Part shown: piece by piece, positions 352-21,931 of the stretch
How the letters are laid out: each line of letters begins with the position of its first letter
Numbering within the stretch: the stretch's first letter is position 1
Virus record (IMG/VR): IMGVR_UViG_3300020045_001862
Span: 1 to 31,113 of that record
Direction: 5' to 3' (one strand)
DNA: 31,113 nucleotides
Source: a virus
Taxonomy: Duplodnaviria; Caudoviricetes
Position numbers and translations under genes: made by a program
The notes under the pieces: model-generated
What the model was told of the DNA's origin: nothing
The model's database searches: none
What the model saw: only the letters and a program-made list of their open reading frames with translations

Positions 352-1122
352 TTACACCGCATATAGTTGATGAAGTTGTTGATATGCTTTGTTGTTATTG
401 TTATTAATGCAGTCTTTGATAAGATCTCCATGACCGACCGGGATCTCTTTGCCTGAGTGGACAAATTCTAGAGCTTTTGCAGTACCTGTATAAGCCCATT
501 CAATGAGTTTGTCACTGAAAATCCAGAAGTTAGACAAAGTGCGGTATTCCACACCATATGTTTTTGGGCGGAAAGCTCCTGCTCCACCGTAGAGTTTTCG
601 TCGAAGAGTACCAGCATCAAGTTGTGTAGAAGGGACACCAAGGAAAAGATCCATAGCACGGATGACGTTAACAGGATCAGCGATAGCCAAATCAGAACCA
701 ACATGAATGTGTCCTCCAGTTGAGCGTAGGTTTTTGTCTTCTGCTTGAGGTTTTGGATTTTCTTCCATTGTCCATGCGTTGTAGTCGGGATCACATCCAA
801 ATACCCACGCTTGTTCGCAGTTTAGTTCTTCTGTTGGGAAACTAACTGCTGAAGATGTATTATATTGTAGATTGGATGGAAGAATTTCTTTTACCATTTG
901 CATGGTATGTTGTACTTCTTGTTTAAATTCTTCGAATGAATTGCATGGAGGAATGTTGAATTCTACTGCAACATTGTCTTCTAGGCAAGCATGACCGTCC
1001 TTGGTTAACATACGAGGAATCCATTTGTCACCACCGAGTAGGCCAATGGCAGACTTGAATTTTCCAGCTTCATCAACAAGGAACAGCTCCGGGTCTGCAC
1101 CTATGGTAAATTTAATTGACAT
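352..1122 (-). CDS. phiEco32-like COOH-NH2 ligase type 2 (glutamine synthetase fold), left copy
   Basis: Motifs TIGADPELF, EDNVAVEFN, FGCDPD, RSTGGHIHVG, GAFRPK.YG.EYRTLSNFW; start moved to ATG 1122 (MSIKF) behind GAGGAG; paralog of 11823..12590. Confidence 0.85.
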   Translation of the reverse strand: MSIKFTIGADPELFLVDEAGKFKSAIGLLGGDKWIPRMLTKDGHACLEDNVAVEFNIPPCNSFEEFKQEVQHTMQMVKEILPSNLQYNTSSAVSFPTEELNCEQAWVFGCDPDYNAWTMEENPKPQAEDKNLRSTGGHIHVGSDLAIADPVNVIRAMDLFLGVPSTQLDAGTLRRKLYGGAGAFRPKTYGVEYRTLSNFWIFSDKLIEWAYTGTAKALEFVHSGKEIPVGHGDLIKDCINNNNNKAYQQLHQLYAV

Positions 1123-1561
1123 CTTTCCAACTCCTCTTATGAAGAGCGTCCCATATACAATGTTTGGAGACACTCAATTCAGTTGATAATTCAATAATAG
1201 ATTTATTAGATGTTCGGATATATCTAACTTTATCTGGGTTTAGTAGTGCTGTGATTTTACGTTTTCCTACATTGGTTCCCAATTTGATTTGATCTTGAAT
1301 GTTATCATATTGAGTTCCTTGTCTAAGGTGAAGAGGATTCACACAAGAAGGGTTATGGCAGTTATGTAGAATGTAATGACCGTCCTTTATATCACCATGA
1401 TAAAGTAACCAACTAACACGATGTGCAGCAATCTTTTTTGTGTTAATTGCCCCTATTCCATAACCATTTTTATCTAAACATCCTGTCCATAACCAACACT
1501 CATCAGTTATATAAACATGCTCATGAAAGTTATGTAGAGGGTCATTCCATTTACTAGCCAT
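1112..1561 (-). CDS. HNH homing endonuclease
   Basis: CWLWTG...GYG...AHRVSW...HNCHNPSCVNPLHL HNH motif with C-terminal HTH-like tail; absent from the right-arm copy. Confidence 0.85.
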   Translation of the reverse strand: MASKWNDPLHNFHEHVYITDECWLWTGCLDKNGYGIGAINTKKIAAHRVSWLLYHGDIKDGHYILHNCHNPSCVNPLHLRQGTQYDNIQDQIKLGTNVGKRKITALLNPDKVRYIRTSNKSIIELSTELSVSKHCIWDALHKRSWKDVN

Positions 1562-1589
1562 ATTCACAACCGATAGTGAACTTGTTCAT
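1554..1589 (-). pseudogene. Orphaned 5' end of the COOH-NH2 ligase gene (MNKFTIGCEYG*)
   Basis: AAGGAAAATAA-ATG then MNKFTIGC, identical to the first 8 residues of the intact ligase at 11823 (MNKFTIGCDPELF). Confidence 0.75.
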
Positions 1590-1598
1590 TTATTTTCC

Positions 1599-2126
1599 TT
1601 AGAAGGTTTCTAAATTGAGAGAAGAGTTGATGCTGTTTAATTTAGTTATGTCATTGTTGTTGTGGTTTGTGGGATAGGTTGTGTTAAATGTTTTATAGGT
1701 GTTAATGATTGGATTGGGTACTTTAAGAATTCCTGTAATCATGTACATGTCAGATGTTGGTTCTCGATTGCTTTTTTGTACGTGTAGTCCGGCAATAGGG
1801 AACTTTTTAAGTTCTTTAATCCATTCTGGTAATACTGAAAGGGATTGTTTAATTGTGAATAGACACGAAATTCGTGCGTTGATGGACATATACTCTTGAA
1901 TAATATTAAATGCTTTGTTTACTTCCTTTAGTTGTAAATACTCAAGATATGCAGTACAAGCAGTACAATCCCCTCGAACGGATGTTAAATCTACTCGAAA
2001 ATTTGACTTTGGTAGAGGCATTATAGTGTACACAGATTCAAGTTTGCCTACGTAGATTTTATCTGTGCTATGTCTTTTAGCAAACAAGTCGTCTGCTGTT
2101 GAATTGCATCCATAAGGTAGTCCCAT
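1599..2126 (-). CDS. Hypothetical protein; paralog of 11279..11812
   Basis: Start MGLPYGC overlaps upstream stop (TAATG); shares RGDCT.CTAYLEYLQL and LKKFPIAGLHVQKSNREP with the right copy. Confidence 0.8.
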   Translation of the reverse strand: MGLPYGCNSTADDLFAKRHSTDKIYVGKLESVYTIMPLPKSNFRVDLTSVRGDCTACTAYLEYLQLKEVNKAFNIIQEYMSINARISCLFTIKQSLSVLPEWIKELKKFPIAGLHVQKSNREPTSDMYMITGILKVPNPIINTYKTFNTTYPTNHNNNDITKLNSINSSLNLETF

Positions 2127-2746
2127 TATGCGAACCTCGTAATAAGAATGTCTGAACACCATTTGACGAAGGCGTCTTTGCGATGCATCCACTCAGGATG
2201 CCCCTGAATTGCTAGTGTTTTGGTTTCAGTTAGAAGAGCTACTTCAGGAATAACCACCGATCTAACTTCTGTGTCTGTGTATACTTTTGTAGTGCGGTCT
2301 TTGTCCCATGCTAGAAGTTCGTGTTTAACATTTGATAAATTGAGTGCTTGATGGTGGCAGGATGATGTATGCATTGTATGACCGTCCCAAGTTTCAACTT
2401 CATGGTCTCCATGGTGTCCGCCTAGAATGTGTTGATACAATGTGCCACCAGACAAAGCACATGCGAGTTGTGCACCACGACACACACCAATAATAGGAAT
2501 ACCTAGTTTAACTGCTGCATTAAACATGTTAATTTCTAGTTGATCTCTGCGAGATGGTTTTTCTGGTGCACGTGCATGAATAACTCGTTGGTTATAAATA
2601 CTAGGAGAGATGTCTTCACCTCCCCATAGAATTAGCATACCATCTGTTGTGAGATCTTCTGGTTTATGTACGATTTTAATTTGGTCGAAAATTCCGAAAG
2701 GATCTCGTTCATGGAATCCCACACTAAATAGAGTTTTATGTTTCAT
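2126..2746 (-). CDS. Class I glutamine amidotransferase / peptidase C26 (gamma-glutamyl hydrolase-like), left copy
   Basis: LILWGGEDISP, GVCRGAQ nucleophile elbow, SSCHHQA, QGHPE triad; 206 aa from ATG 2746, same length as the right copy. Confidence 0.88.
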   Translation of the reverse strand: MKHKTLFSVGFHERDPFGIFDQIKIVHKPEDLTTDGMLILWGGEDISPSIYNQRVIHARAPEKPSRRDQLEINMFNAAVKLGIPIIGVCRGAQLACALSGGTLYQHILGGHHGDHEVETWDGHTMHTSSCHHQALNLSNVKHELLAWDKDRTTKVYTDTEVRSVVIPEVALLTETKTLAIQGHPEWMHRKDAFVKWCSDILITRFA

Positions 2747-2886
2747 AGAAGGCGCGGTCCAATTAAATAGCCTAATGTTCCTGCGAAAATCGCACTTACT
2801 AACCAATGAATATCTAGAAAATTTCCTATTTTTCCGATAAAATAACCAAGAAAGAATAGACAAAGCATTACAATTAAAGGTTTCAT
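2743..2886 (-). CDS. Small membrane protein (47 aa), left arm only
   Basis: Manual translation MKPLIVMLCLFFLGYFIGKIGNFLDIHWLVSAIFAGTLGYLIGPRLL*; ATGA overlaps at both ends; two hydrophobic stretches. Confidence 0.7.
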   Translation of the reverse strand: MKPLIVMLCLFFLGYFIGKIGNFLDIHWLVSAIFAGTLGYLIGPRLL

Positions 2887-3125
2887 AGTGGAACGATTTC
2901 TCCATTATCGTTTAAACGGTATTTTTGGTATGTTGGCATGGTTTTTAGTTTTTGTAGTTCGTGCAAACGATACACACAGATTGTATTTTGAGGCCAACTT
3001 CGTGCAAAATTAGGTAAGAATTTTCCTAATTCATATTCATCATTTGCCCACATTTGTTGGTCTTTGGTGAGTTTTCTATCCTCTGTTTCGTCTGTGTCAA
3101 TGCAAATTAGGAACATTTGAGTCAT
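2883..3125 (-). CDS. Hypothetical protein; paralog of 10426..10662
   Basis: Shared WP..T.CVY.L.ELQKLKT.PTYQKY...NGE motif. Confidence 0.8.
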   Translation of the reverse strand: MTQMFLICIDTDETEDRKLTKDQQMWANDEYELGKFLPNFARSWPQNTICVYRLHELQKLKTMPTYQKYRLNDNGEIVPL

Positions 3126-3341
3126 TTAAGTCACCTGTGTAGACAAGGTTTTAAAAATGTTTGGGGGCAGTTTTTTTCCGTGGACATGAGATAGAAACTT
3201 ACCTTTTGGATTTGATACAACTTTGAGTCGTGTATGGTTTTCCCACCCGGATTTGCCTGTAAAAATGTCTAGGAAATGACCGACCTTTTTAATTACAGTA
3301 TCTTGTCCTAGAGATTTGGGATATTTGTTAATGTCAAACAT
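3126..3341 (-). CDS. Hypothetical protein; paralog of 10210..10425
   Basis: Shared MF.I..Y.KSLGQD.V.KKVGH..D.F.GK.GW. Confidence 0.8.
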   Translation of the reverse strand: MFDINKYPKSLGQDTVIKKVGHFLDIFTGKSGWENHTRLKVVSNPKGKFLSHVHGKKLPPNIFKTLSTQVT

Positions 3342-3699
3342 TTGGTTGATCCTTTTTTACGAGGGTTGTGATATCTAGTTCGGCTAGTGAGTATTGAATG
3401 GGATGTCCTGGGAGAAAGACACTGTTTTTGCATTCAACTACACAAGGATTGCCTTGGTATTTTTGCATTCTGTCAAGTTGTTCAATGAAATTGATGATAA
3501 TAACTGGTGATGTTTTGTTAGATTGAGTGTTGATCTTATCACCAATTGTGAAGATTTGTTTTGCTTTGTCTAGATCATACGCACAACGTTCTAACCATTT
3601 GGCACGTTCTTCTGGAGTTTCTGTTACTGCTTTTGTTTGAACGTGTGTTTGCCAAGATGGTACAGGTTCATCGTATAGTTTGATTTCGCCAGTAATCAT
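3334..3699 (-). CDS. Hypothetical protein; paralog of 9855..10217
   Basis: Shared MITGEIKLYDE, WL.RC..DLDKAK, MQKYQG.PC. Confidence 0.8.
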   Translation of the reverse strand: MITGEIKLYDEPVPSWQTHVQTKAVTETPEERAKWLERCAYDLDKAKQIFTIGDKINTQSNKTSPVIIINFIEQLDRMQKYQGNPCVVECKNSVFLPGHPIQYSLAELDITTLVKKDQPNV

Positions 3700-3812
3700 T
3701 TTGTAATCCAGTTCCAAAAAATGACTGAACCTGCAAATAGGTTAAATAAGACAACTAGATACAGTGAGATCGCAATACCTAGTTTAAAGGTTTCTTTATC
3801 TGATGAGTTCAT
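3696..3812 (-). CDS. Small single-TM protein (38 aa), left arm only
   Basis: AGGAG RBS; MNSSDKETFKLGIAISLYLVVLFNLFAGSVIFWNWITK*; ATGA overlap with next gene. Confidence 0.65.
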   Translation of the reverse strand: MNSSDKETFKLGIAISLYLVVLFNLFAGSVIFWNWITK

Positions 3813-3868
3813 TGCCGACTCCTATAGGCGGAGGTTAATCGAAGTGACGTGTTTAGTCGTCGGGATGG

Positions 3869-4117
3869 TTAGCGAATGCGTTCCATTCGCCAAATTATTA
3901 GGTTTTGTGCATCATCTGGGTTGATTGTTTCTACCCACTCACCTTCTGTTAATTCCATTTCACCTGTACGACAGATTTCACCAAGTGCTTCGGCGAGCCC
4001 TTCGTCTGGGTTGGGTGTGCAATTGGCTTGTGTTTTGGTTAGGAACATTGTTTCACCAATGCGATCATCTTTGTGTTGATACCCAAAGACAATATCACCA
4101 ATTTCAGGTAGTTTCAT
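3869..4117 (-). CDS. Hypothetical protein; paralog of 9307..9552
   Basis: Shared IG.IVFG.QH..DR.GETMFL, EAL.E.CRTGEM, NLI.W.M.RIR. Confidence 0.8.
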   Translation of the reverse strand: MKLPEIGDIVFGYQHKDDRIGETMFLTKTQANCTPNPDEGLAEALGEICRTGEMELTEGEWVETINPDDAQNLIIWRMERIR

Positions 4118-4446
4118 AGTTTCACCATTGTTCCTTGATCTGAGTACCAGACTTCAGTTGGTTGATATGCAGTAAATGCTTCTTGACAAATTGGACAAGG
4201 TTTAGCACATACCAATTCACCGTTATTTCCATAACGAAAGATCATTAGTTTGTGAATTTGTTTGTCTTTGCATCGCAGCATACATAGGATTTCTGCATGT
4301 GCGAAGGGTTGGTGTGGATGACCGACCTTATTTGCGTAATATGCTTGGATTGGGTGGGTTTTTGTATAACTGTTAGTGGCAACAGCCAACAATCTACCGC
4401 GTTTGTCAAAGGCATGAGCAATTACTACATATCGTTTTTTAGCCAT
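4114..4446 (-). CDS. Zn-dependent cytidine/dCMP deaminase-like protein, left copy
   Basis: HAE...PCPIC deaminase signature; 10 differences in 110 aa from 8790..9122 by manual alignment. Confidence 0.8.
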   Translation of the reverse strand: MAKKRYVVIAHAFDKRGRLLAVATNSYTKTHPIQAYYANKVGHPHQPFAHAEILCMLRCKDKQIHKLMIFRYGNNGELVCAKPCPICQEAFTAYQPTEVWYSDQGTMVKL

Positions 4447-4613
4447 TATTTTTTGATCGTGTGTTCTTTGTTACAAACAGTACAACGTACTACACGAGTG
4501 GTGGTGGTGATGTCTTTGGTGGTAGGATTACATACACGAACATTGTTTCCATAGTGTTTGTCTTGAAATGTGTGTTTGCAGGTGCAAAATTGTTTACTTG
4601 TGTTCATTGACAT
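4446..4613 (-). CDS. Small Cys-rich (Zn-ribbon) protein, 55 aa; paralog of 8626..8790
   Basis: Manual translation MSMNTSKQFCTCKHTFQDKHYGNNVRVCNPT...RCTVCNKEHTIKK*; RBS AGGA; TAATG overlap. Confidence 0.75.
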   Translation of the reverse strand: MSMNTSKQFCTCKHTFQDKHYGNNVRVCNPTTKDITTTTRVVRCTVCNKEHTIKK

Positions 4614-4673
4614 GTTGTTTTCCTAGTAGATAGTGTGTAGATGTTTGAAGGAAGATGTGGATAATTTCAGGTG

Positions 4674-4970
4674 TCAAGCGAATTCCTTTTGATAACCGTT
4701 TTGTGCGTTTGAGATGAATGTTTTTTCGTCAATTTCTGGACATTCTTGGTAGTATTCATTGGACAACATACGACCAGCAGCTTTCATACGACCAACATGC
4801 TTGTTGTACATATCTTTGATATTGCATTTGGCTGCTGCCCAACCAACAACTTTGAATGATTCGTTGATGGCGTAGGCAATGGTCATACCTCCGTGAGGTT
4901 TGATGGAACCATCTTTGTTGATGTTGCGACAATGAACAAACTTGATGTTGGATTGTGGACGAGTTTTCAT
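4674..4970 (-). CDS. Hypothetical protein; paralog of 8259..8564
   Basis: Shared SNIKF.HCRN.NK.G.I.P.GG.TIAY, FKVVGWAAAKC, YNK.VGRMK..GR; GGAG RBS before ATG 4970. Confidence 0.82.
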   Translation of the reverse strand: MKTRPQSNIKFVHCRNINKDGSIKPHGGMTIAYAINESFKVVGWAAAKCNIKDMYNKHVGRMKAAGRMLSNEYYQECPEIDEKTFISNAQNGYQKEFA

Positions 4971-4971
4971 G

Positions 4972-5178
4972 TTAATTCTCCAGTGTGATTGAACCATTAA
5001 AATCTTTGAGTTCGTTGGTAGGAAGATGGTCACTATAAAAACCTAAATATTTTGGTGTATTTGTGTGGATACATACACCAATAGTTTCGCTTATCATTAG
5101 AAAAATATTGTTGTTGTTTGCAATTTGTAATTTTGGAAATTTGACATTCGTTTTTTCATTTGATTTGACGGATTTCAT
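4972..5178 (-). CDS. Hypothetical protein
   Basis: 68 aa ORF with AAGGA RBS, packed in operon. Confidence 0.65.
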   Translation of the reverse strand: MKSVKSNEKTNVKFPKLQIANNNNIFLMISETIGVCIHTNTPKYLGFYSDHLPTNELKDFNGSITLEN

Positions 5179-5188
5179 GATTGTATCC

Positions 5189-5287
5189 TTAGAAATATTG
5201 GATGGTGATTACTTCGTAGGAACTAACAGTGGTGATTGATATTAAGTCCCATGTGTTAGTTTTTGGGTTGAATTCTTTGACGATCAT
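5189..5287 (-). CDS. Possible small hypothetical protein (MIVKEFNPK...)
   Basis: Fills the gap in the operon; start uncertain. Confidence 0.4.
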   Translation of the reverse strand: MIVKEFNPKTNTWDLISITTVSSYEVITIQYF

Positions 5288-5639
5288 TCGTGACCGACCT
5301 TTCATTATTAGGATTTGTGATAAAGATTTTTGGGGAATATAGATTTCCTCTTTTTTGACACTCTGCAAGGCAATCTGCATATCCTGCATCATACCCGTCA
5401 TCAAACATTTCTGCCATATTATCTTTTCGTTTTAACATAGTGGGCCAATCAACTTGCTCTAATTTTGGCAGTGTTCTGTTAGGTTTTGTTTTTATTTGTT
5501 CTTTCAAATACGTTGGTTCATGTAGACAGCTTTTTTTATGTTTTACTTTATGTTCACATTTTTTGCATGAATCTTTTTTAGTGGTGCGTGCTGTTCCAAC
5601 ATGTTGATCTCTTCCAGATAGGTAATTTCTTATGTTCAT
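5256..5639 (-). CDS. Hypothetical protein, first gene of leftward unit
   Basis: Strong AAGGAGG RBS; basic N-terminal half; may have an internal start at MAEMFDDGY. Confidence 0.6.
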   Translation of the reverse strand: MNIRNYLSGRDQHVGTARTTKKDSCKKCEHKVKHKKSCLHEPTYLKEQIKTKPNRTLPKLEQVDWPTMLKRKDNMAEMFDDGYDAGYADCLAECQKRGNLYSPKIFITNPNNERSVTNDRQRIQPKN

Positions 5640-5745
5640 TATTTGCCTCCTTTTGGTATGGTTATTTCAATTTGAATCTCCAATTGAAAATTAGTACCAT
5701 ATTGTTGTATTCTCTTTCCTTCTCTACAATCCTCAGCAAGCTATC

Positions 5746-5816
5746 ACAATCGCTCTCAGTTGAACGATCGTCAGGTTGGGTATACCTGCATATACCTAAC
5801 ACAATACAATCGCTCT
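5746..5816. repeat. Direct repeat ACAATCGCTCT x2
   Basis: Copies at 5746..5756 and 5806..5816, 60 bp apart, in non-coding DNA. Confidence 0.6.
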
Positions 5817-5877
5817 AAGAGCTTTCTATGCATTCTATTAGCATCGCTTTTGTCAGTTCAGTGCTTTGCTGTTTAAC

Positions 5878-6038
5878 GGACAATACTTCACTGTGCTTGT
5901 CAGTCAAGGGCTTGTTCGCCAAACGTTAGTATCACTCTATCTCTTAAACGAAGAATGAAATGATGAGGTGAGTTGACGACAGCTCAACGAACAAGACTAC
6001 TCCCTTGACAGCCAATGCTCATTACGTAATCATTGTCC
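5878..6038. promoter_or_regulatory. Imperfect inverted repeat with divergent promoter-like elements
   Basis: Minus strand CGAACAAG-CCCTTGACT-16nt-TATTGTCC; plus strand CGAACAAG-actact-CCCTTGACA...CATTGTCC; the -10 match on + is poor. Confidence 0.55.
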
Positions 6039-6080
6039 TACAGCAAGTCGCTGTTCTCTTTTTTTTGATTGGAGTTTGAT

Positions 6081-6167
6081 ATGGCTACGAAATTACTTGA
6101 CTGGTTGGTTGTTGTTATGATAACCTTCGTTTGTCTCGTTGTTCCTACTTTGATTGAAAGGATCTAA
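6081..6167 (+). CDS. Small hydrophobic peptide (28 aa)
   Basis: GGAG RBS; MATKLLDWLVVVMITFVCLVVPTLIERI*. Confidence 0.55.
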   Translation: MATKLLDWLVVVMITFVCLVVPTLIERI

Positions 6168-6168
6168 C

Positions 6169-6366
6169 ATGTTCCACGTATCCGCAGGTAAGTTCGATGG
6201 TGATGAACGCAATTGCAAATATTGTGATTCTTTCGACTCATTGGATAAAGCCATCGTTGCTTACATTCAATACTCCGATTATCATTGGTGTGAACTTGTC
6301 TATCAAGGCAAAGACAACACCTACTGGATTATGAATCCTTACCCACAACCTGCAAATCTCCGCTGA
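6169..6366 (+). CDS. Hypothetical early protein
   Basis: AAAGGA RBS before ATG 6169 (MFHVSAGK). Confidence 0.65.
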   Translation: MFHVSAGKFDGDERNCKYCDSFDSLDKAIVAYIQYSDYHWCELVYQGKDNTYWIMNPYPQPANLR

Positions 6367-6374
6367 TATATCCT

Positions 6375-6448
6375 ATACACACTTGGTCTCAGTCTCAAGG
6401 CTTCTCAGAGCCGTGCGAAGCAGGTGTGTATGTGATGCATCGTGCATC
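6375..6448 (+). other. Putative structured RNA leader or processing site
   Basis: ATACACACTTG (6375-6385) pairs with CAGGTGTGTAT (6421-6431), enclosing GGCTT-ctca-GAGCC; followed by GATGCA-tcg-TGCATC hairpin. Confidence 0.45.
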
Positions 6449-6483
6449 TTATAAACCAAACCATTCCTACTAAGGAGCTTCAA

Positions 6484-7479
6484 ATGTCTTTCATCTCTTC
6501 TATCCGTATCTCCCTTGCCAACCTCATCGGTGGTGAACAAATCGCTAAACGTAATCATCTGTCTGAGCAGGTGCTCTCCCAACTGGTTCAACCCTCTGGC
6601 CGTAAGGTTGCAGAGATCATGGACAAGCAGTACAGCACAGCCGAAGACAAACAGTTGGTAGCTGGTAAGTTCTACGTCATGGATCTTACTCGTCTTAGTT
6701 CTGAGCGAGTGCGTGATGCTATTGCTTCGCTTGGTTGCTGGTCTGCGATTGCACGTTCCTTCTCCGAGTACGAGCGTACGGTCGGTCATAAGCACATGTC
6801 CGATACAAAGCTCACTGCTCTGGTTGATGAGTTCCATGCTTGGAATGCCTCTTCCTCTGCACGTGGTTACATGGGCACGGATCAGTTATTCGAAGCTGTT
6901 GCCAAGATGAGCGTGGTCAATGCTCCGAAAGGCAACAAGGAAACTGATGCCATTCTTGCTCGCGTAAAGAAATGCACGGTTGAGCAGATTCGTGCAGAAC
7001 GACTGGCGAAAGCTGAAACCAAGACCAAAGCCCGGATCGAACTGATCGAAGGCTTCGTTGCTCTGATTGAAGGTTATCAGGGTAACGACAGCGATGCACA
7101 CCACATGTCCTCTGCAAAGGCACTGGACAAGGCGCTGCATACCTTGGATTGGGTTGCAGGTTGGGATTCCAACAACCCGGCTGAACAAGCAGCAGAACTC
7201 CTTATGATTGAGGATGATATTCGCTTGATCCGTGAGTTGTCCAAGAGTGAGAAGCAAAACACCGAGGATTACGTTGACGGTGTCATGGCTTCAGACACCC
7301 TAGAGCGTAACATCAACGGTCTGGACAGCAATCGTCGGGCTGGTGAATCCGCCAAGGGGTACAAGGGCTACGAGCCGGAGCCGATGGAAGAGGTTCTCGA
7401 GCACTTTGCTGAACTCGAAGAGCAAGGCCGTCGCATCGAGGCAACTCCGCGCCGCCGTGTGATTAAACAAGCAGCGTAA
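6484..7479 (+). CDS. Large early protein of unknown function (331 aa)
   Basis: TAAGGAG RBS before MSFISS; visibly higher GC and strong codon bias (CGT, GCT, CTG); own terminator. Confidence 0.85.
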   Translation: MSFISSIRISLANLIGGEQIAKRNHLSEQVLSQLVQPSGRKVAEIMDKQYSTAEDKQLVAGKFYVMDLTRLSSERVRDAIASLGCWSAIARSFSEYERTVGHKHMSDTKLTALVDEFHAWNASSSARGYMGTDQLFEAVAKMSVVNAPKGNKETDAILARVKKCTVEQIRAERLAKAETKTKARIELIEGFVALIEGYQGNDSDAHHMSSAKALDKALHTLDWVAGWDSNNPAEQAAELLMIEDDIRLIRELSKSEKQNTEDYVDGVMASDTLERNINGLDSNRRAGESAKGYKGYEPEPMEEVLEHFAELEEQGRRIEATPRRRVIKQAA

Positions 7480-7490
7480 GTCAAAAGCAG

Positions 7491-7525
7491 GGCATGGTCG
7501 GGCATAACCGGCTGTGCCTTTTTTT
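7491..7525 (+). terminator. Rho-independent terminator
   Basis: GGCATGGTCGG-gcataa-CCGGCTGTGCC followed by T7. Confidence 0.8.
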
Positions 7526-7540
7526 ATGTACCTAAAGGTT

Positions 7541-7652
7541 CGAGCAAATGCTCGTGTTCGCAAGCTCACACAAAGGCAGGTAACACCATGCTGACAGGTG
7601 AATAAGGTCGGTCATGGGTAGGACACAGCCCTCAATGCGAAAAGCAAAGAGG
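7541..7652 (+). ncRNA. Putative structured intergenic RNA
   Basis: Consecutive hairpins CGAGCA-aa-TGCTCG; CCATG-CTGAC...GTCGG-t-CATGG; CCTC-aa-TGC-gaaaa-GCA-aa-GAGG; no credible + ORF. Confidence 0.35.
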
Positions 7653-7714
7653 ATACACCAATATGGTACGAACTTTTCAACAACTTTTCTCAACATAACA
7701 CATAAGGAATCATC

Positions 7715-7858
7715 ATGAAAACCAAGCAAGTGAAGAAACAAGAAGCCCAAGAACGCAACACAACTTGGAATCTCTTTTCCGATGCACAGAAACTCACCTT
7801 TCTTGCTAATCGTCCCGGAAAATGTGCCAAACAAATCGCTCGAATTCTTAACAAGTAA
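7715..7858 (+). CDS. Small basic hypothetical protein (47 aa)
   Basis: TAAGGA RBS; MKTKQVKKQEAQERNTTWNLFSDAQKL...ARILNK*. Confidence 0.7.
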   Translation: MKTKQVKKQEAQERNTTWNLFSDAQKLTFLANRPGKCAKQIARILNK

Positions 7859-7868
7859 AGGAAACATC

Positions 7869-8036
7869 ATGCTACTCAACGCTCTAGGTCAACAAATTGG
7901 TAAAATTAGTGATAAACTTAATGCCACTACTCACCCAAAAATCTTTGCCCATCTACGTGAAGTTCTCGAGCCTTCGCCAAAGTACATTGGTTCTCTCTAT
8001 CGCATGGATCAACGTGCGAAAATAGTAACCAAATAA
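7869..8036 (+). CDS. Small hypothetical protein (55 aa)
   Basis: AAGGA RBS before MLLNALGQ. Confidence 0.7.
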   Translation: MLLNALGQQIGKISDKLNATTHPKIFAHLREVLEPSPKYIGSLYRMDQRAKIVTK

Positions 8037-8045
8037 TCTCTCCTG

Positions 8046-8083
8046 TGGGTACGCCGCAATCAACGGATCACTACCCATTTTTT
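8046..8083 (+). terminator. Possible terminator
   Basis: TGGGTA..CCG-caatcaa-CGG..TACCCA followed by T6; stem is interrupted. Confidence 0.45.
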
Positions 8084-8088
8084 CAATC

Positions 8089-8234: not shown

Positions 8235-8258
8235 TTCTCATTTCTTCAGGAGATTTTC

Positions 8259-8564: not shown

Positions 8565-8625
8565 CAACACCCATCATCCTAACATTCTTACAAACATCAA
8601 CTAAATATTTATTTAAGGAAATGTA

Positions 8626-13246: not shown

Positions 13247-13247
13247 C

Positions 13248-14543: not shown

Positions 14544-14545
14544 TT

Positions 14546-15835
14546 ATGTGTGGCCTCGTAGCAGTTCTAAGTAAGCAACCAACAGTAGGTTTTCTCTATA
14601 AAGATAAGACCATCTTTCTACAAATGCTCATCTCGGATATGTTCCGAGGTATGGATAGTACAGGATCATTCGCTGTAAACAAACATGGTAATCTCAAAAT
14701 GATTAAAGATGCCAGTGCTGCATCTTTCTTTATCAATAAGAAAGAAGCTAATACCTTCTTTAATGATTTCGTACAGGACTATCATATTGTGGTCGGTCAT
14801 AACCGCAAAGCTACAATGGGTGGTGTAACCTCAGAAACTGCTCATCCTTTCATCGAAGGGAACATCTGTCTTGTCCACAATGGTACGTTGCAGAACCATT
14901 ACAAACTCGCAAATCGTGTAGTTGATTCCAATGCAGTAGCTGCACACATTAATGAGTTCGGATATAAATCCCTACTTAAGAACATTGAAGGTGCGTATGC
15001 TCTTATCTGGTACAACGCAGCAGAGAAGATGCTCTACTTCACACGTAATGCCGAACGCCCTCTCCATCTCGTGGAAACCAATGATCGCGTCTATCTAGCA
15101 TCAGAAGCTAAGATGTTAGATTGGATTCTAGATCGAAATGATCTCAGTAAATACACAATTCAAAATGTTCCAACGGACAAAGTTTTTAAGTTTAGCCTAG
15201 AAACACGCAAATTAGAGGCAGAATCAAAGCCAAAAAAAGCAGAACCCGTGAAGAACAAGCACCAAAGCCACCAATCACGGGCTCACCAGATGTCTACAGG
15301 CTTTGGGCATCTTGCGTTAGCTTACTCCTCGGAACGAAACACTAAGCTCTCTCCACACACACTTGCAGCAAACATTGAAACATATTCAAGTAACCAAACA
15401 ATTGCATGGAGATTACTCAATTGGGAACCACGTGAAGCATCAACTAAACTTGAAGGAGAAACAACGGATGGTTATCGTACACCCATTACAATCTTTCTAG
15501 ATAATAATATCTGGTCTAAAGAACAGATTGATGAACTAACAGATGCTGAATGGCTAACAGGTCAGATCATGACAATCTCCTCTAAAGCAGGACTTGTACA
15601 ACTCTACCTAAAACATTGTGGTATTGAACAAACATGGACAACTGCTAACCACAAACGTGTCTCCAAAGGTATGATTGAAGAAGCGGGTGGTGCATGTTAT
15701 TCATGTGGTACAGTACTAGAAACTAAACACGACATTACTAATTCAGTTGTTAGTATGAATACAAGAGGCGAAATTCAATTCATCACCTGTGACCAATGTT
15801 GTACTGGTCATCCTTATCATCATGGGTATTGCTAA
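14546..15835 (+). CDS. Class II (Ntn) glutamine amidotransferase with C-terminal Cys-rich domain
   Basis: N-terminal MCGL, RGMDSTG, GHNRKAT, AHPF, VHNGTL, DS, GAYAL; C-terminal CYSC...CDQC. Confidence 0.88.
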   Translation: MCGLVAVLSKQPTVGFLYKDKTIFLQMLISDMFRGMDSTGSFAVNKHGNLKMIKDASAASFFINKKEANTFFNDFVQDYHIVVGHNRKATMGGVTSETAHPFIEGNICLVHNGTLQNHYKLANRVVDSNAVAAHINEFGYKSLLKNIEGAYALIWYNAAEKMLYFTRNAERPLHLVETNDRVYLASEAKMLDWILDRNDLSKYTIQNVPTDKVFKFSLETRKLEAESKPKKAEPVKNKHQSHQSRAHQMSTGFGHLALAYSSERNTKLSPHTLAANIETYSSNQTIAWRLLNWEPREASTKLEGETTDGYRTPITIFLDNNIWSKEQIDELTDAEWLTGQIMTISSKAGLVQLYLKHCGIEQTWTTANHKRVSKGMIEEAGGACYSCGTVLETKHDITNSVVSMNTRGEIQFITCDQCCTGHPYHHGYC

Positions 15836-16219
15836 ATGAAAACATCAGAACTAATTGGCCCAGCCCTTGATTGGGCTGTGGCGAAGTGCGAAGGCATTCC
15901 TCTTGTTCTAGCCCCCTTCACAGGAGCAAAGAACTTCGTGATGCTCGGGCAGAACATGAAGCCCACTGCTTATGAGTACCTACCAACAAGTAGCTGGTCA
16001 CAAGGTGGCCCGATCATTGAACGGGAGAAGATTTCCAACGATCATGATCATAAGAAAAACAGGTGGGTGGCTATCGAACGACACTCAATTAACCCAATTG
16101 ACGGTGAAGACAGAGTACGAAGAATTGGTTATGGTCCCACGCCCTTAATCGCAGCCATGCGCTGCTATGTTGCTAGTAAATTCGGTGATGAAGTAAAAAT
16201 TCCAAAGGAACTAATGTGA
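15836..16219 (+). CDS. NinX/DUF2591-family phage protein
   Basis: ALDWAVAKCEG...W.QGGPIIERE.I...GPTPLIAAMRCYVASK.GDEV. Confidence 0.75.
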   Translation: MKTSELIGPALDWAVAKCEGIPLVLAPFTGAKNFVMLGQNMKPTAYEYLPTSSWSQGGPIIEREKISNDHDHKKNRWVAIERHSINPIDGEDRVRRIGYGPTPLIAAMRCYVASKFGDEVKIPKELM

Positions 16220-17013
16220 AACAGAAGCGTATCATCCTCATTGGTTACAAGATAGGTAGCCGGTCGCTGAAGAATCTACAAACACAACTTAAGGAAGACC
16301 AAGATGAACGCCGTGTTCTCCGTATACGCCGTACCAGTGTTAGGTATCGTCGTAGGGTGTCTGATCGCATTGTGGCTTGGGGTCCTACTGCACCAAGTCA
16401 GCATACAGATCAAGCACAGGAAGCAGTAAAGAAACTCGCAAGCAACAAGCTTTTTTCCTTTAGAAAATTCGCTGAACATAACGTGTCAGTGCCAGAATGG
16501 ACAACAGATCGACAAATAGCACTTAGTTGGTACTTCGCAAACATTCCTTTTGTTGTTCGCACATTATTATGTTCTCACAGTGGTAAGGGAATTATCCTTT
16601 TTAATAAACAGGATGATGAATATGAAAAATTCAGTGGAGATGTTCCACATGCGAAACTATATGTCCAATACAAGAAAAAGAAACATGAATATCGTGTCCA
16701 CGTTTTCCAACAAGAAGTTATCGACATTGCTCAGAAAAAGAGAAAGGTCGGTCATGAAAACCGCGACAACCAAATCCGCAATCACTCTAATGGGTGGATC
16801 TATGCGCGTGAAGGGATCACCAAACCTGAAGGTATTAATCAGCTTGCCTTGGATGCCTGTGCTGCTCTTGGTCTATATTCAGGTGCTGTAGATATTATCT
16901 GGAATGAACATGAAAATAAATGTTATGTTCTAGAAGTAAACACTGCACCAGGCATTGAAGGCACTACCTGTAAGAAATACACCAATAAAATTATTGAAAG
17001 TCTAACAGCATGA
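16216..17013 (+). CDS. ATP-grasp (RimK-like) peptide ligase, phiEco32 type
   Basis: SNKL, HSGKGI, EYRVHV, IRNHSNGW, GAVDII, VLEVNTAPG. Confidence 0.88.
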   Translation: MKQKRIILIGYKIGSRSLKNLQTQLKEDQDERRVLRIRRTSVRYRRRVSDRIVAWGPTAPSQHTDQAQEAVKKLASNKLFSFRKFAEHNVSVPEWTTDRQIALSWYFANIPFVVRTLLCSHSGKGIILFNKQDDEYEKFSGDVPHAKLYVQYKKKKHEYRVHVFQQEVIDIAQKKRKVGHENRDNQIRNHSNGWIYAREGITKPEGINQLALDACAALGLYSGAVDIIWNEHENKCYVLEVNTAPGIEGTTCKKYTNKIIESLTA

Positions 17014-17795
17014 AACTACTACCATATCCACACCGCATGGGCCTAGGTGAAGCCTTTCAAGCAAATGATATGAAATTTGCCTTTGTCAATCCTCATATGA
17101 ATGATTTTCAAATGGTTCATTCATGGGTAAAATGTCGTGAGTATTTCAATGAACTTCTCATGAAAAATCACCATCCTGAATATGAATTTGTACAGACATA
17201 TGGATTCGATTACAAACCAGATGAATTTCCACTAGATCTAAGTGCTACACGAATCGCTGTGAAGTTCATGTCTCTTGAACAAAAGCAAGTATTCATGAAC
17301 AATCTACAATGGATACATTCTGTGGAATCTGCGAATGATATTGACCATACAGTTGTCCATGACATTAGTGCACAAGAAGTTATTCTTATTGCAAGTAAAC
17401 TATGGGTTCAGAAATGTCTACTAACAAATATCTACACACTCTTGGTCAAATTGGCTGCATTGAATATTACAGCCTACACTAAAACTTCTCTATTAAATAT
17501 TAAGATCAAAGAACAAACTCCAAGTGAGATTGACTACATCAATCGTCTAACTGTACCTGTATTCAATTCTATCTTGGAAAATTGCACGGTAATCGCTGAG
17601 ATTCCATCTAAATATGTTGATGGAACTGAAGAAGTGCGACTACCTTATGATGTACATGGATATTCAGGTCTTATAGCACTCCTTCAACACAAACCAAAAA
17701 AGAAATCAGAAAATGTTCTATACGCACTAACAAACGGTCTAAAGAAAGCCTTCCTTGGTAAGTATAAAACTGCCTTCATCAAAGAGGCAGCTTAA
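17010..17795 (+). CDS. Hypothetical protein
   Basis: 261 aa ORF, ATGA overlap; WVKCREYFNE motif; no family recognised. Confidence 0.8.
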   Translation: MKLLPYPHRMGLGEAFQANDMKFAFVNPHMNDFQMVHSWVKCREYFNELLMKNHHPEYEFVQTYGFDYKPDEFPLDLSATRIAVKFMSLEQKQVFMNNLQWIHSVESANDIDHTVVHDISAQEVILIASKLWVQKCLLTNIYTLLVKLAALNITAYTKTSLLNIKIKEQTPSEIDYINRLTVPVFNSILENCTVIAEIPSKYVDGTEEVRLPYDVHGYSGLIALLQHKPKKKSENVLYALTNGLKKAFLGKYKTAFIKEAA

Positions 17796-17965
17796 TGTCA
17801 GGAAGATGCAAGTCTTGCGACTCAATCCTTGAAGAATGGGAAATGAAGATGGTCGATCCATCTACACAACAATACACAGAACTTTGCTCTGTCTGTATCG
17901 AAGAGGGTGATGTGTTTGAAGATTGGTTTGATCTAGACAACCTTACCGTGGATGATACACTATGA
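17795..17965 (+). CDS. Small acidic Zn-finger protein (56 aa)
   Basis: Manual translation MSGRCKSCDSIL...ELCSVCIEEGD...DDTL*; GAGG RBS; overlaps at both ends. Confidence 0.75.
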   Translation: MSGRCKSCDSILEEWEMKMVDPSTQQYTELCSVCIEEGDVFEDWFDLDNLTVDDTL

Positions 17966-18126
17966 ACCCATGGCTACGCCCATCAATCCAACAACCTCGC
18001 AGGATTCGCAAGTTTGTTGATAAGCTCTTTAGTCCATTGACAAGTATTGTCACATATGGTAAGGACTATTGGGATACTTGGCATCAAGTATATAAACCGG
18101 AAGGTAAGAAGGATGATAACAAGTGA
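17962..18126 (+). CDS. Small hypothetical protein (54 aa)
   Basis: MNPWLRPSIQQPRRIRKF...KKDDNK*; ATGA overlap. Confidence 0.6.
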   Translation: MNPWLRPSIQQPRRIRKFVDKLFSPLTSIVTYGKDYWDTWHQVYKPEGKKDDNK

Positions 18127-18853
18127 CTCACATGTTATTCGCAAAGAAGCCTGTCCAGAGTGTAGGAGATTAGGTAATGACAAGTCCGGCGATAATTTGG
18201 CTGTTTATAGTGATCTGCATTGTTATTGTTATAGGTGTGGTTACACTACAGGCCGTAAATCATTTACAAGACATGATCCTCCGCAATCGCAAAGAATTGT
18301 TCTACCTGCAGACGTTACTACGGAGCTACCATTTGAAGCAAGAGCATGGCTTGAACAATATCAACTGGCACGGTTAGATCTTAATCGTAATCATGTTATG
18401 TGGTCAGAGAAATGGTCTCGTATCATCTTCCCTTACTTCAATGAAACTGAACTTCTAGCATGGCAAGGACGATATGTTGGTACAGACAAGACGAAGGCCA
18501 AATGGTTCTCACAGGGTAAGATCCATGAGATCATCCATCCAGTGCAGGTTACAAAACGGAAAGCTATATTGGTTGAAGATATTGTATCTGCGATCAAGGT
18601 TTCACGGCAACGAGGTGCGATTCCTATCTTTGGGTCCTCGGTGTCGGCAAAACAAATACTACGACTTAAAACAGTAGTAGATGAGGTATGGTATTGGTTA
18701 GACCCGGATATGCGAACCAAGAGCGTTAAAATGGCTAAACTGAGCAATCTATTAGGACTACCTGCTCATGTAATCTTCTCAGATAAAGACCCTAAGGAAC
18801 ACGATCATGAGTCCATTGCAAACATCCTCAGAGAAAATCAAGCAACGTCGTAG
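18113..18853 (+). CDS. DNA primase (Zn-binding domain plus TOPRIM), T7 gp4-like N-terminal part
   Basis: ACPEC...DNLAVYSD.HCYCYRCG; LVEDIVSA; WLDPD; KDPKE. Confidence 0.88.
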   Translation: MITSDSHVIRKEACPECRRLGNDKSGDNLAVYSDLHCYCYRCGYTTGRKSFTRHDPPQSQRIVLPADVTTELPFEARAWLEQYQLARLDLNRNHVMWSEKWSRIIFPYFNETELLAWQGRYVGTDKTKAKWFSQGKIHEIIHPVQVTKRKAILVEDIVSAIKVSRQRGAIPIFGSSVSAKQILRLKTVVDEVWYWLDPDMRTKSVKMAKLSNLLGLPAHVIFSDKDPKEHDHESIANILRENQATS

Positions 18854-19088
18854 TCAGATGTTGATTCATTCTTATCTATATTATCATCTAGACACATCTG
18901 TTGTGTCTGATGATCAGTGGCAACAATGGGCAAATGAACTGCAGTATCTACAAGATCTTTTCCCTGAACCTATTGGATTCTATGACAAAGAATTCATAGA
19001 TTGGGATGGTTCGACAGGTATGCACTTACCGAAAGACAATTGGATTAGAGATAAAGCACAACAGCTCTTGACAAGTATGGGAAAGTAG
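18807..19088 (+). CDS. Stand-alone protein resembling subdomain Ia of NAD-dependent DNA ligase
   Basis: HSYLYYHLDTSVVSDDQWQQWANEL resembles LigA H.YLYH..D.P.I.D..YD...EL. Confidence 0.6.
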   Translation: MSPLQTSSEKIKQRRSQMLIHSYLYYHLDTSVVSDDQWQQWANELQYLQDLFPEPIGFYDKEFIDWDGSTGMHLPKDNWIRDKAQQLLTSMGK

Positions 19089-19096
19089 TATATAAT
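19068..19096 (+). promoter_or_regulatory. Consensus sigma70 promoter
   Basis: TTGACA (19068)-17 nt-TATAAT (19091). Confidence 0.85.
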
Positions 19097-19171
19097 AAAT
19101 ATATATTAATATAAAGGATAAAGACTATTAAAGACTATATAAATATAATTAAATATCTATTAAATATTAAT

Positions 19172-20356
19172 ATGTATAACAAATACATAACTTATATAGA
19201 TACTAACAATGAAAACAAAGAACTGATCTTTTTGTATACTTGTCTTAGAGATATGCACTCTGTCTATAAAAAGGATCTTTCCTTCGAAGAGTTCTCTATG
19301 TATTGTCTATCGAAGGTAAATGACAAGGATCGTGAGGTAATAGAATCCCTTCTAAGCACTCTACAAAGCGCTACAATCGACGAACAGCTTATAGGTGATG
19401 TCCTCACTACCCTACGCAATAAAAAACTCGCCTATGACCTCGCGTTAGTTTCGTTGGATGTGAGTGAAGGACGGTCATCAGTAGACAAGATTTTCAGTAC
19501 CTTCGATGCCTTTGAACAAAAACGTGAAATAGAACAAGTTGAATTTGTTTCTGGAGATTTAAATGAACTTTACAACGATGCCGTCAAAACAACTGGACTC
19601 CGTTGGCGACTTACAACTCTTAACAGAATGCTTGGCTCTTTGCGAAAAGGAGATTTCGGTTTCATCTTTGCTAGACCGGAATCAGGTAAAACTACCTTTC
19701 TTGCATCAGAGATTACTCACTTTGCGGGACAGCTTACAGCAGAAAGTGGTCCAATCCTCTGGTTCAACAACGAAGAGCAAGGAAGCAAAGTTATGCTTAG
19801 ATGTATACAAGCAAGCCTTGGAATCTCTCAAGCAGAGTTGTTCTCCAACATTAATCAACATCAAACTACCTTTGACAGTCTCGGTGGACAACACATTAAA
19901 ATCTTCGATTCCGCCAACATCCATCGAAGACAGGTTGAACAACTTTGCAAGGAGCTTAAGCCAGCCCTTGTTGTATTTGATCAAATTGACAAAATCAAAG
20001 GATTCACTGACGACCGCGAAGACCTCCGACTTGGGGCAATTTATATTTGGTCTAGAGAACTTGCAAAAACACACTGTCCTGTTATTGGAGTATGTCAAGC
20101 TGATGCGTCAGGAGAAGGTAAACGATGGTTAACAATGGAGAATGTAGCAAATGCAAAAACCGCTAAACAAGCAGAAGCAGATTGGATTCTTGGGATCGGA
20201 AAGACACATGACACAGCCCTTGAATATGTCAGACACTTTCACTTCTCAAAGAATAAACTGTCCGGGGATGCCGATACTGAGCCGGAGATGCGTCATGGCA
20301 AGGCAGATGTACTCATCCAGCCGTTAATAGCACGATACAAAGATATGGAGTTCTAA
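19172..20356 (+). CDS. DnaB-like replicative helicase (true start may be ATT 19127)
   Basis: Walker A ARPESGKTT, NNEE, VVFDQIDK, VCQAD, AEADWILGIG. Confidence 0.9.
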   Translation: MYNKYITYIDTNNENKELIFLYTCLRDMHSVYKKDLSFEEFSMYCLSKVNDKDREVIESLLSTLQSATIDEQLIGDVLTTLRNKKLAYDLALVSLDVSEGRSSVDKIFSTFDAFEQKREIEQVEFVSGDLNELYNDAVKTTGLRWRLTTLNRMLGSLRKGDFGFIFARPESGKTTFLASEITHFAGQLTAESGPILWFNNEEQGSKVMLRCIQASLGISQAELFSNINQHQTTFDSLGGQHIKIFDSANIHRRQVEQLCKELKPALVVFDQIDKIKGFTDDREDLRLGAIYIWSRELAKTHCPVIGVCQADASGEGKRWLTMENVANAKTAKQAEADWILGIGKTHDTALEYVRHFHFSKNKLSGDADTEPEMRHGKADVLIQPLIARYKDMEF

Positions 20357-20616
20357 TGGAGATAGTTAAGCATCACAAAGTTAAGGCATTCTCACGTAAA
20401 AACATGATGGATTTTGCTAAGGTCATTCGCAATTGTAATCTTAGACATGACGAACGAGATAAAATTGCATGGGCGATTGCCGCCTATCTAGAAAAAGAAG
20501 ATATGTTCTTTGACAGACAAAGATTTCTACAAGTAGCAGATGGTCGTATGGAAGATGACCATAAAACAAAAGCATATTCAACTGTTATGGAGAAACAAAA
20601 TGACCCAGAAATTTGA
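20356..20616 (+). CDS. Hypothetical protein
   Basis: TAATG overlap; FDRQRFL motif. Confidence 0.7.
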   Translation: MEIVKHHKVKAFSRKNMMDFAKVIRNCNLRHDERDKIAWAIAAYLEKEDMFFDRQRFLQVADGRMEDDHKTKAYSTVMEKQNDPEI

Positions 20617-20782
20617 TATTCCAATCAACATCTCAATCCTTGCAAAAGACGAAGCAGAGGCTGAACGTGCTGTTCTAGCTTATCTACGCACTGCAGGAAA
20701 GGTTATTGATTGTCCCGAGTTAATTGACTATGAACTTTTCGAGTTTGTATCCAATGACTTGTCTCAATCATGTTGCTGCTAA
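20600..20782 (+). CDS. Hypothetical protein (MTQKFDIP...)
   Basis: GGAG RBS before ATG 20600; abuts polymerase start. Confidence 0.65.
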   Translation: MTQKFDIPINISILAKDEAEAERAVLAYLRTAGKVIDCPELIDYELFEFVSNDLSQSCCC

Positions 20783-21931
20783 ATGATCCTCGTAATTGAC
20801 ACAGAGACAACTACACACAACAAAGGGAATGTACATGATCCAAGGAACCAACTATGCCTATTGGTAATAAAGGCTATTTCAGAGAATTCAACGACTACAT
20901 ACTCTTTCAAAAAGCCATGGGACGTTGGCCATATAAATGAAATCTTATCTATGGGTAGGTTGCTGGTCTTTTTTAACGGCAAGTTCGATCTGTCTTGGCT
21001 TCGACGTGAGTTTGGGTATGTCCCTCCTTTCGGGACTCGTATCTACGATTGTCAATACGCTGAGTTTATATTTAGTAATCAAACATGGAAGTTCCCTGAT
21101 CTACGAACCGCTTGTCTCAACAGAGGATTATCACCCAAACAAGATTACATCAGTGAACAGTATTGGTCACAAGGGATTGACACACTAGATATTCCCCCAG
21201 ATGAACTTGAAGAATATTGTATTAATGATGTAGAAATTACCCACGAACTTTTCTTATCCCAACAAGAAGATTTCGTCAACAAATATCCACATATGTTGAA
21301 ACTCTTTAAGTTACACATGCATGATCTGCCGGTACTTTTAGAGATGGAGTGGAATGGATTGAAATATAATAAGGGTCGGTCATTAGAAATCGCTGAAGAA
21401 AACGAAATTCGCATTACTGACCTTGAAACACAACTCAACAATATTGTTGATTTTGAAATTAACTGGAACTCAAACAATGAAAAATCTACTATCCTTTATG
21501 GCGGCAACATTATCCGCGAACATCAAATGCCAATCGGACATTTTAAAACTGGTGCTAGAGCAGGTCAAGTCAAATACAAAAATGTGGAATCAGCAACGGA
21601 ATTCCCACAGCTCGTCTCCCCCTTAACAGAATATCAATTTGGAGAGAAGAAAGAAAACCACTCAGTAGCGGAAGATGTACTGCGATCTCTAAAACCAAGC
21701 AAACTTGCTAAGAAACTTATTGAGTTAATTCTTGAGCGTAGTAAACTAGAGAAGCAGAATGGAACGTATCTTCTAGGACTTCCCAAGAAGATGCAGACTA
21801 TGGGTTGGGGTGACTACTTACATCCCTCGTATAACCAATGTGTTGCGGTTACGGGACGGATTGCATCATCAAATCCTAATGGTCAAAACATTCCTCCAAT
21901 TGGGAAGCGCCTGTGCGAGAGTAGGTTCTAA
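20783..21931 (+). CDS. Family A DNA polymerase, N-terminal part (3'-5' exonuclease plus start of polymerase domain)
   Basis: ExoI IDTETT, ExoII FNGKFDL, ExoIII YCINDV; TGRIASSNPNGQNIP. Confidence 0.9.
   Translation: MILVIDTETTTHNKGNVHDPRNQLCLLVIKAISENSTTTYSFKKPWDVGHINEILSMGRLLVFFNGKFDLSWLRREFGYVPPFGTRIYDCQYAEFIFSNQTWKFPDLRTACLNRGLSPKQDYISEQYWSQGIDTLDIPPDELEEYCINDVEITHELFLSQQEDFVNKYPHMLKLFKLHMHDLPVLLEMEWNGLKYNKGRSLEIAEENEIRITDLETQLNNIVDFEINWNSNNEKSTILYGGNIIREHQMPIGHFKTGARAGQVKYKNVESATEFPQLVSPLTEYQFGEKKENHSVAEDVLRSLKPSKLAKKLIELILERSKLEKQNGTYLLGLPKKMQTMGWGDYLHPSYNQCVAVTGRIASSNPNGQNIPPIGKRLCESRF

Follow-up and report, generated by a model that had tools for sequence, protein, structure and literature searches.

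GGWCGGTCAY, a dispersed word in the early arm of an uncultured podophage, as the probable site of a nicking system related to that of tf and LUZ24-like phages

The virus record IMGVR_UViG_3300020045_001862 (Duplodnaviria; Caudoviricetes), analysed here over its entire 31,113 bases and called the window, carries repeated copies of the asymmetric 10-base word GGWCGGTCAY, roughly one per kilobase of its early genes. This word is under selection, evenly spaced and graded in density from the early end; it recurs across a whole clade in several spellings and is read at the level of DNA. We consider it likely that it marks where a sequence-specific phage nicking system acts, one akin to the system of tf and the LUZ24-like phages, in which GGWCG/GTCAY would be cut late in infection, leaving virion DNA with breaks that are densest at the early end and are sealed after entry. 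Such a system would likely be of a known kind, programmed nick sites, with a spelling that is new. The record is a fragment, from the early arm, of a podophage with kinship to the LUZ24-like phages and to Alcaligenes phage QDWS535.

Direct counting on both strands finds 19 copies of GG(T/A)CGGTCA in the window, 14 of GGTCGGTCA and five of GGACGGTCA. Seven are minus-strand copies left of 5300 and 12 are plus-strand copies from 6780 on, with none beyond 21382, which bears out the number, split, places and strands given in an earlier sequence-only reading of this DNA. Because the next base is T or C at all 19 copies, we treat the word as a 10-mer, outside which the flanks have just a mild A bias. 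The perfect copies, and the only single-mismatch copy in the window, lie in a left and a right arm as follows.

430..439, minus, GGTCGGTCAT: left-arm COOH.NH2 ligase gene (PVGH); homologue of 12503
991..1000, minus, GGACGGTCAT: left-arm COOH.NH2 ligase gene (KDGH); homologue of 11942
1376..1385, minus, GGACGGTCAT: within the left-arm-only HNH endonuclease gene (1112-1567)
2378..2387, minus, GGACGGTCAT: left-arm glutamine amidotransferase gene; no copy at the homologous place in the right arm
3276..3285, minus, GGTCGGTCAT: homologue of 10266
4318..4327, minus, GGTCGGTCAT: deaminase-like gene; homologue of 8909; Logan contigs from two runs end at 4322 (base 6)
5290..5299, minus, GGTCGGTCAC: other reading frame (RSVT)
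6780..6789, plus, GGTCGGTCAT: first long early gene (345 aa), without a family match
7606..7615, plus, GGTCGGTCAT: intergenic
8909..8918, plus, GGTCGGTCAT: deaminase-like gene; intact in 12/12 aligned relatives
9845..9854, plus, GGTCGGTCAC: intergenic; abuts the ATG at 9855
10266..10275, plus, GGTCGGTCAC: homologue of 3276
11075..11084, plus, GGTCGGTCAC: glutamine amidotransferase gene; present in 3/17 aligned relatives, the others wholly different there
11942..11951, plus, GGACGGTCAT: COOH.NH2 ligase gene; contig L137 begins at base 6 of the homologous site
12503..12512, plus, GGTCGGTCAT: COOH.NH2 ligase gene; kept in 11/20 alignments
14791..14800, plus, GGTCGGTCAT: class II amidotransferase gene; Logan contigs from two runs begin at 14797 (base 7)
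16746..16755, plus, GGTCGGTCAT: ATP-grasp gene; contig L003 begins at 16751 (base 6)
19469..19478, plus, GGACGGTCAT: DnaB-like helicase gene, read in the GRS frame; 13/13 aligned relatives keep the rare CGG codon
21374..21383, plus, GGTCGGTCAT: DNA polymerase N-terminal gene, GRS frame
7496..7505, plus, GGTCGGGCAT: single-mismatch copy, in the terminator-like hairpin 7489-7520

A perfect copy in the relative G001 (oriented position 31247) has flanks similar to those of the near-match in the 7489-7520 hairpin.

Dinucleotide shuffles (n = 100) yield a mean of 0.11 copies and a maximum of 1 against the 19 observed, where the sequence-only reading, assuming a GC content estimated by eye, had expected roughly 0.2; synonymous-codon shuffles (n = 3,000), a control that this reading had recommended, average 0.59 copies and never exceed 5, against 17 genic copies. 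Spacing, already described there as regular, is evener than random placement in both arms (coefficient of variation 0.34, P = 0.005; 0.33, P = 0.008). All 17 genic copies are on the sense strand, two of the 19 are intergenic, and neither gene starts nor gene ends are preferred. The copies had been said to occupy different frames and to lie between genes as well, and this is true of three genic and the two intergenic copies; the remaining 14 of 17 share a single frame, x-[VD]-G-H. Peptides of this form number 15 in the window against 1.8 expected and use the motif codons in 14 cases, whereas the control peptide [VD]GQ occurs once against 2.5 expected. We therefore reject protein constraint as the cause, since the peptide itself is in excess and almost always written with the motif; codon usage and synonymous shuffles agree with the earlier judgement on this point.

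The window's copies fall on two strands because its left arm is inverted, an arrangement defined by the following features.

1..5716, minus: second early arm, inverted; identity 90-92% with the single early arms of L001 and L130, 65-76% with the window's own right arm
5712..5716, no strand: inversion joint with a 5-base overlap; L130 matches 5665-5716 reversed (98%) and 5712-5824 forward (91%), 2.5 kb apart
5712..30837, plus: genuine early and replication arm, with left-end region, ligase/amidoligase cluster, primase, helicase, split polymerase and ribonucleotide reductase
6005-6033, right arm: sigma70-like promoter

Bases 8-5724 are an inverted paralogue of 7639-12933 at 65-76% identity, and L118 and L162 are the nearest matches of the right arm (92-95% identical). 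We read the joint as an inversion because L130 matches its two sides in opposite directions at separate places. Among the 450 loci compared, the window alone has the same early gene on both strands; contigs of four sequencing runs neither bridge the joint nor cover 5289-5651, although a contig gap alone proves nothing. The left arm is probably the foreign, inverted early arm of another phage, joined as a chimeric product of assembly or amplification, and a real recombinant is rather unlikely. We accordingly reject a real divergence point near 5950, the inverted arm being present in no other compared locus. All copies had been described as pointing away from that point, with transcription: the strands are as stated, but the divergence, and with it the switch of motif direction, is probably not biological, and relatives carry antisense copies. 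Because the left arm is a paralogue with four homologous copy pairs (430/12503, 991/11942, 3276/10266 and 4318/8909), the 19 copies are not independent, and the probable chimera bears on any other finding in bases 1-5716. The right arm begins near a C-rich stretch. In L130 and G001 this stretch precedes the early promoter region, and we infer it to be the left genome end; the motif gradient therefore runs from the early end.

Related phages, in which the sequence-only reading had proposed to map the motif, carry the same word or variants of it, and that reading's central claim of a selected cis-acting signal concentrated early is upheld by the enrichment, the early-end density and this conservation. 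Across five complete relatives, copies in the early-gene sense and opposite to it number 11:0 (G001), 5:1 (G002), 7:0 (G003), 3:2 (G004) and 11:0 (G005), against 0-2 hits for a reversed control word; G007 also keeps its copies on one strand, as does QDWS535 (16:0, spelled GGTCKATCA). Individual sites in close relatives are perfectly kept or entirely lost, the conservation counts listed above coming from related contigs that are not independent. An unbiased word search returns GGWCGGTCA in relatives, GGTCKATCA in QDWS535, GGWCTATCA in G008 and G009 and, by the same procedure, TACTRTGAC in PaP3 and Rembedalsseter; GGWCGGTGA and TACGGTCA are further spellings in relatives. The word GGACTATCA of L216 and L253 differs from GTACTATGA at two of nine bases, and from it single steps reach GGTCTATCA and GGTCGATCA, both of which QDWS535 uses, as well as GGTCGGTCA. 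In a tree of 163 distinct ligase sequences, the spelling is GGWCGGTCA for 40, GGWCTATCA for 31, GGWCGATCA for 18, TACTRTGMC for 4 and a rarer word for 5, with 34 lacking any spelling and 32 too short for a call; a call needs three copies, a threshold that lets in some chance calls, phiEco32 for example. No dispersed motif emerged from the word search in phiEco32, ICP2, CW02, ParMal1 or Kurepalu-1, but the search is blind to low-copy or gapped motifs, because it failed to recover the known phiKMV nick word; its top word in CVT22 precedes gene starts and resembles a ribosome-binding site. Three other repeats came to light in these comparisons: 14 separated copies of the near-palindromic CTAACGTTA, unrelated to the motif, in L220; seven copies of TATAGATAC in L215, which has few copies of the family word; and tandem repeats with a period of about 33 bases adjoining the early genes of G003 (47226-48771).

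We read the word at the level of DNA rather than RNA because copies can lie antisense to genes. G003, G006, G015, G016, G020, G023 and QDWS535 each have one antisense copy in their largest late gene, and so do PaP3 and Rembedalsseter; in eight other relatives a late-arm copy is in the sense direction, and G001 has none in its late arm. The first early copies are antisense in G016 and G018, strands are mixed in G004, G011, G015 and G017, and antisense copies occur in two homology-confirmed genes, the amidotransferase of G016 and the reductase of G004; antisense labels on short genes, which come from a crude gene caller, were left out of the strand evidence. In G016 (L301-L303), G018 (L304-L305) and G017 (L306-L308, spelling GGTCGGTCC), the motif changes strand inside the early arm with gene direction constant. 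The same word also accompanies two different sets of virion genes, one in G002, G003, G004, G006 and ctOsX528 and the other in G001, G005 and G007, and is therefore not carried along with the capsid module.

A family of proven nick sites lies within reach of these spellings. In tf, 14 nicks that ligase can seal were mapped to TACT/RTGMC, every one on the top strand and 11 in the left half, with function and nickase described as unknown (PMC3517423); the tf sequence record annotates the nicks. Two other reports describe, for Rembedalsseter, 13 breaks at WACTRTGAC, a word enriched in 60 relatives and confined to that cluster of 61 Pseudomonas phages (PMC11780129), and, for LUZ24-like Ab22, surplus sequencing reads at GTACTRTGAC sites (PMC4482731). 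PaP3, tf, Rembedalsseter and the complete relatives of the window have in common a COOH.NH2 ligase cluster and two convergent arms, a LUZ24-like plan that extends to the window, with the late arm seen in relatives only. The window's word falls outside the strict consensus TACT/RTGMC or WACTRTGAC and is linked to it via intermediate words only. Aligning GTACT/RTGAC with GGWCGGTCAY places the predicted cut before base 6.

The ends of assembled contigs are consistent with this position. Contig L003 starts at base 6 of the 16746 site, L016 starts GTCAT, and L137, obtained after the prediction was set, starts at base 6 of the 11942 homologue. Among 50 distinct left ends in the clade, three are at base 6 against 0.079 expected (P = 7e-5) and none at bases 1-5 or 7, and among 121 non-clade ends none starts GTCAY. 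Pooled by spelling, with GGWCGGTCA first, base-6 starts number 3/60, 1/18 and 1/35 against 0.10, 0.10 and 0.17 expected, or 5/113 against 0.36 over the three; ends without an assigned spelling start ATCA in 2 of 97 cases. As a positive control, L153, placed in the tf/PaP3/Rembedalsseter clade with support 0.978, starts GTGAC, the mapped tf cut. At least two Logan contigs end at base 6 of the 4318-4327 site, and 3 of 26 true left ends among the Logan ends listed start at base 7 of two other sites. G002 starts GTCAG, an unconfirmed case that fits its looser word. Taken together, these ends are indirect evidence for a break at the predicted bond or an adjacent one.

We propose that a phage-encoded nickase would act late in infection, by analogy with tf, T5 and phiKF77, and would cut one strand as GGWCG/GTCAY, such that packaged DNA would carry staggered single-strand breaks, densest at the early end. 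By the same analogy, the breaks would presumably be sealed after entry; for phiKF77, sealing after entry is described in PMC3517423. The most likely purpose, we suggest, would be to provide swivels, or points of flexibility, in whichever end is the first to be packaged or ejected and transcribed.

Several observations weigh against this proposal. First, GGWCGGTCAY agrees with GTACTRTGAC at only about 6 of 10 bases, and sites in tf changed at positions 1, 3 or 4 were not nicked (PMC3517423). Second, both strands bear copies in G004, G011 and G015-G018, unlike in any described nick family, and the nickase amounts to a candidate HNH gene. Third, all of the break evidence consists of ends of assembled contigs. 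The P value is partly post hoc because L003 and L016 were known before the formal test; the upstream half of the site is confirmed by a homologue for L003 and L137 and lacks such a homologue for L016, L204 and L329; none of 36 right ends stops at base 5; and the positive control is one contig. A later independent set of 39 new ends, 23 of them with a spelling, gave 0/10 for GGWCGGTCA and 1/5 and 0/8 for the others, or 1/23, and contig starts are therefore support rather than proof. Finally, the Logan ends fall at base 6 for one site and base 7 for two, and none of the Logan places listed is one where many molecules begin.

A quite improbable alternative is that a phage protein binds the word without cutting it, whether for site-specific modification, as a checkpoint in DNA entry or packaging, or as a stoperator-like roadblock. 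A binding site would fit the selection, the regular intervals and the gradient from the early end just as well; that some relatives tolerate either strand suits a protein that needs only to bind; and a bulky one-base modification could stall polymerases and so end contigs. Binding alone, however, leaves unexplained both the stepwise link to a proven nick word and the contig starts at the homologous bond. Moreover, a scan of 61 open reading frames in the window found no methyltransferase or repressor, and integrase (PF00589) and HTH_3 repressor (PF01381), the only such families searched, are absent from all five complete relatives. Stoperators in particular call for a temperate phage with a repressor and for intergenic, transcription-aligned sites, and neither these families nor the placement of the copies, so rarely intergenic, conforms to that pattern.

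Very improbable is mimicry of a directional host signal (the Chi of RecBCD/AddAB, the KOPS of FtsK, or an uptake sequence) that would protect or draw in the entering end. One-strand polarity and a density falling from the left end in the closest relatives would suit such a signal. In 151 genomes of one candidate host order, which includes a Propionivibrio genome, however, the word occurs at no more than 25 per Mb, much as its reversed control does, compared with the window's density of about 610 per Mb; this tally takes in one unpublished genome, G049, on which the result does not depend. Early copies are also opposite in G016 and G018 and mixed in G017, at odds with a fixed direction, and the word is not among the five candidate Chi words in the accessible part of PMC8022716. 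Least probable of all is an antitermination or pausing signal acting in early transcripts or on the elongating polymerase, which the sense orientation of every genic window copy and of 37/40 copies in the five complete relatives (early-gene strand) would favour and which the antisense copies in the G016 amidotransferase, the G004 reductase and the largest late gene of seven clade genomes, and the lack of preference for gene starts or ends, contradict. The Chi, stoperator and antitermination analogies offered by the sequence-only reading thus give way to antisense copies, background frequency in the 151 candidate-order genomes and the lack of integrase and HTH_3 repressor, and the enrichment in host genomes that it had suggested looking for is not seen in this one order.

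For the nicking system that we favour, a small HNH gene is a weak lead as the nickase. In G001, a 104-residue gene of family phrog_4590 immediately precedes the large terminase gene; the HNH label rests on Pfam matches in 11 of 17 family members and weak PDB matches, and His55, Asn69 and Asn78 are invariant. All 18 complete motif-positive genomes of the clade have the gene, as do PaP3, Rembedalsseter and tf (21/21 in all), and no match was found in phiKMV or in 10 kb around the T5 terminase. It is also present in seven of nine related motif-negative genomes (G010, G014, MEP401, phiEco32, ICP2, CW02 and CVT22), and its tree tracks spelling no better than other genes do, with G015 and G016 grouping with GGWCGATCA phages; the gene as a sufficient cause is thus not supported. 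A bolder version, which we regard as unlikely, is that tf-type nicking spans a large uncultured podophage clade in which nickase and site have co-drifted through at least six spellings and placement on a single strand is no longer needed, with this conserved 100-residue gene (located before the large terminase gene in this clade; in tf, it is gene 29) as the LUZ24-like nickase. If so, exchanging the gene between tf and QDWS535 would exchange the cut word.

Beyond the motif, the genes of the window include those for a phiEco32-type COOH.NH2 ligase, an amidoligase, amidotransferases, an ATP-grasp protein, a primase, a helicase, a split polymerase and a ribonucleotide reductase; the family scan of its 61 open reading frames found no structural genes. 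Its helicase points to an uncultured spring phage, QDWS535 and Methylophilales phages MEP401/402 as the closest relatives with annotation, its ligase to LUZ24-like Pseudomonas phages. The first long early gene (6442-7479, 345 aa) has no PHROGs or Pfam match and has homologues in G001, G005 and G007. The DNA polymerase (20783-22644) is encoded by two adjacent genes, likewise in QDWS535 and MEP401, and the HNH endonuclease gene found only in the left arm (1112-1567) holds its own perfect motif copy. Bacterial genome bins with related contigs bear scattered labels that indicate no host. We claim neither habitat nor host because the sequencing runs contain at most 0.23 of the words and consist entirely of contigs.

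More broadly, if nicking at GGWCGGTCAY is real, the habit reaches a much wider clade under other spellings, including QDWS535, a cultured phage whose host is Alcaligenes faecalis. The series of spellings would be a natural handle on the specificity determinant, and relatives with copies on both strands would strain the idea of an obligatorily intact template strand. Public assemblies, too, seem capable of showing by their contig starts where a cut lies.

Many oriented copies of one asymmetric word are also the mark of the stoperators of mycobacteriophage L5, a temperate phage whose repressor binds them; they run with transcription and lie mainly in intergenic DNA. The window motif differs in its two intergenic copies out of 19 and in the antisense copies of its relatives. 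It has been known for some 50 years that phage DNA can carry programmed nicks, without an agreed function or, for the LUZ24 group, a named nickase, as far as the accessible parts of PMC3517423 and PMC11780129 go. The first of these gives R/GCGCRGG, with genes sciA and sciB, for T5/BF23 and CGACxxxxxCCTA/CTCCGG for the phiKMV-like phages. Their words are, like ours, short and asymmetric, and their single-strand breaks in virion DNA are programmed, with function unknown, whereas those here are predicted; the phages and words are unrelated to ours, and the sites fewer. Literature searches, with subscription papers and supplements outside their coverage, found neither GGTCGGTCA, GGTCGATCA, GGTCTATCA or TGACCGACC as whole words nor, among the papers listed, any work on the motif clade or a LUZ24-type nickase. 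The earlier suggestion of an undescribed system hence holds for the spelling, not found in print, and not for the system, which intermediate words and ancestry link to the tf/LUZ24 nick motif. With the nick sites of tf, Rembedalsseter and LUZ24-like Ab22, GGWCGGTCAY has in common related phages, the same early gene cluster, an enriched asymmetric word of 9-10 bases with few near-matches (a single one in the window), 9-14 copies per genome, mostly genic, sometimes between genes and densest in the early half, a late-arm antisense copy and a predicted cut at the homologous bond. It differs from them in the word itself, in having several spellings in a clade outside the Pseudomonas cluster, in occupying both strands in some relatives and in that its nick is a predicted one.

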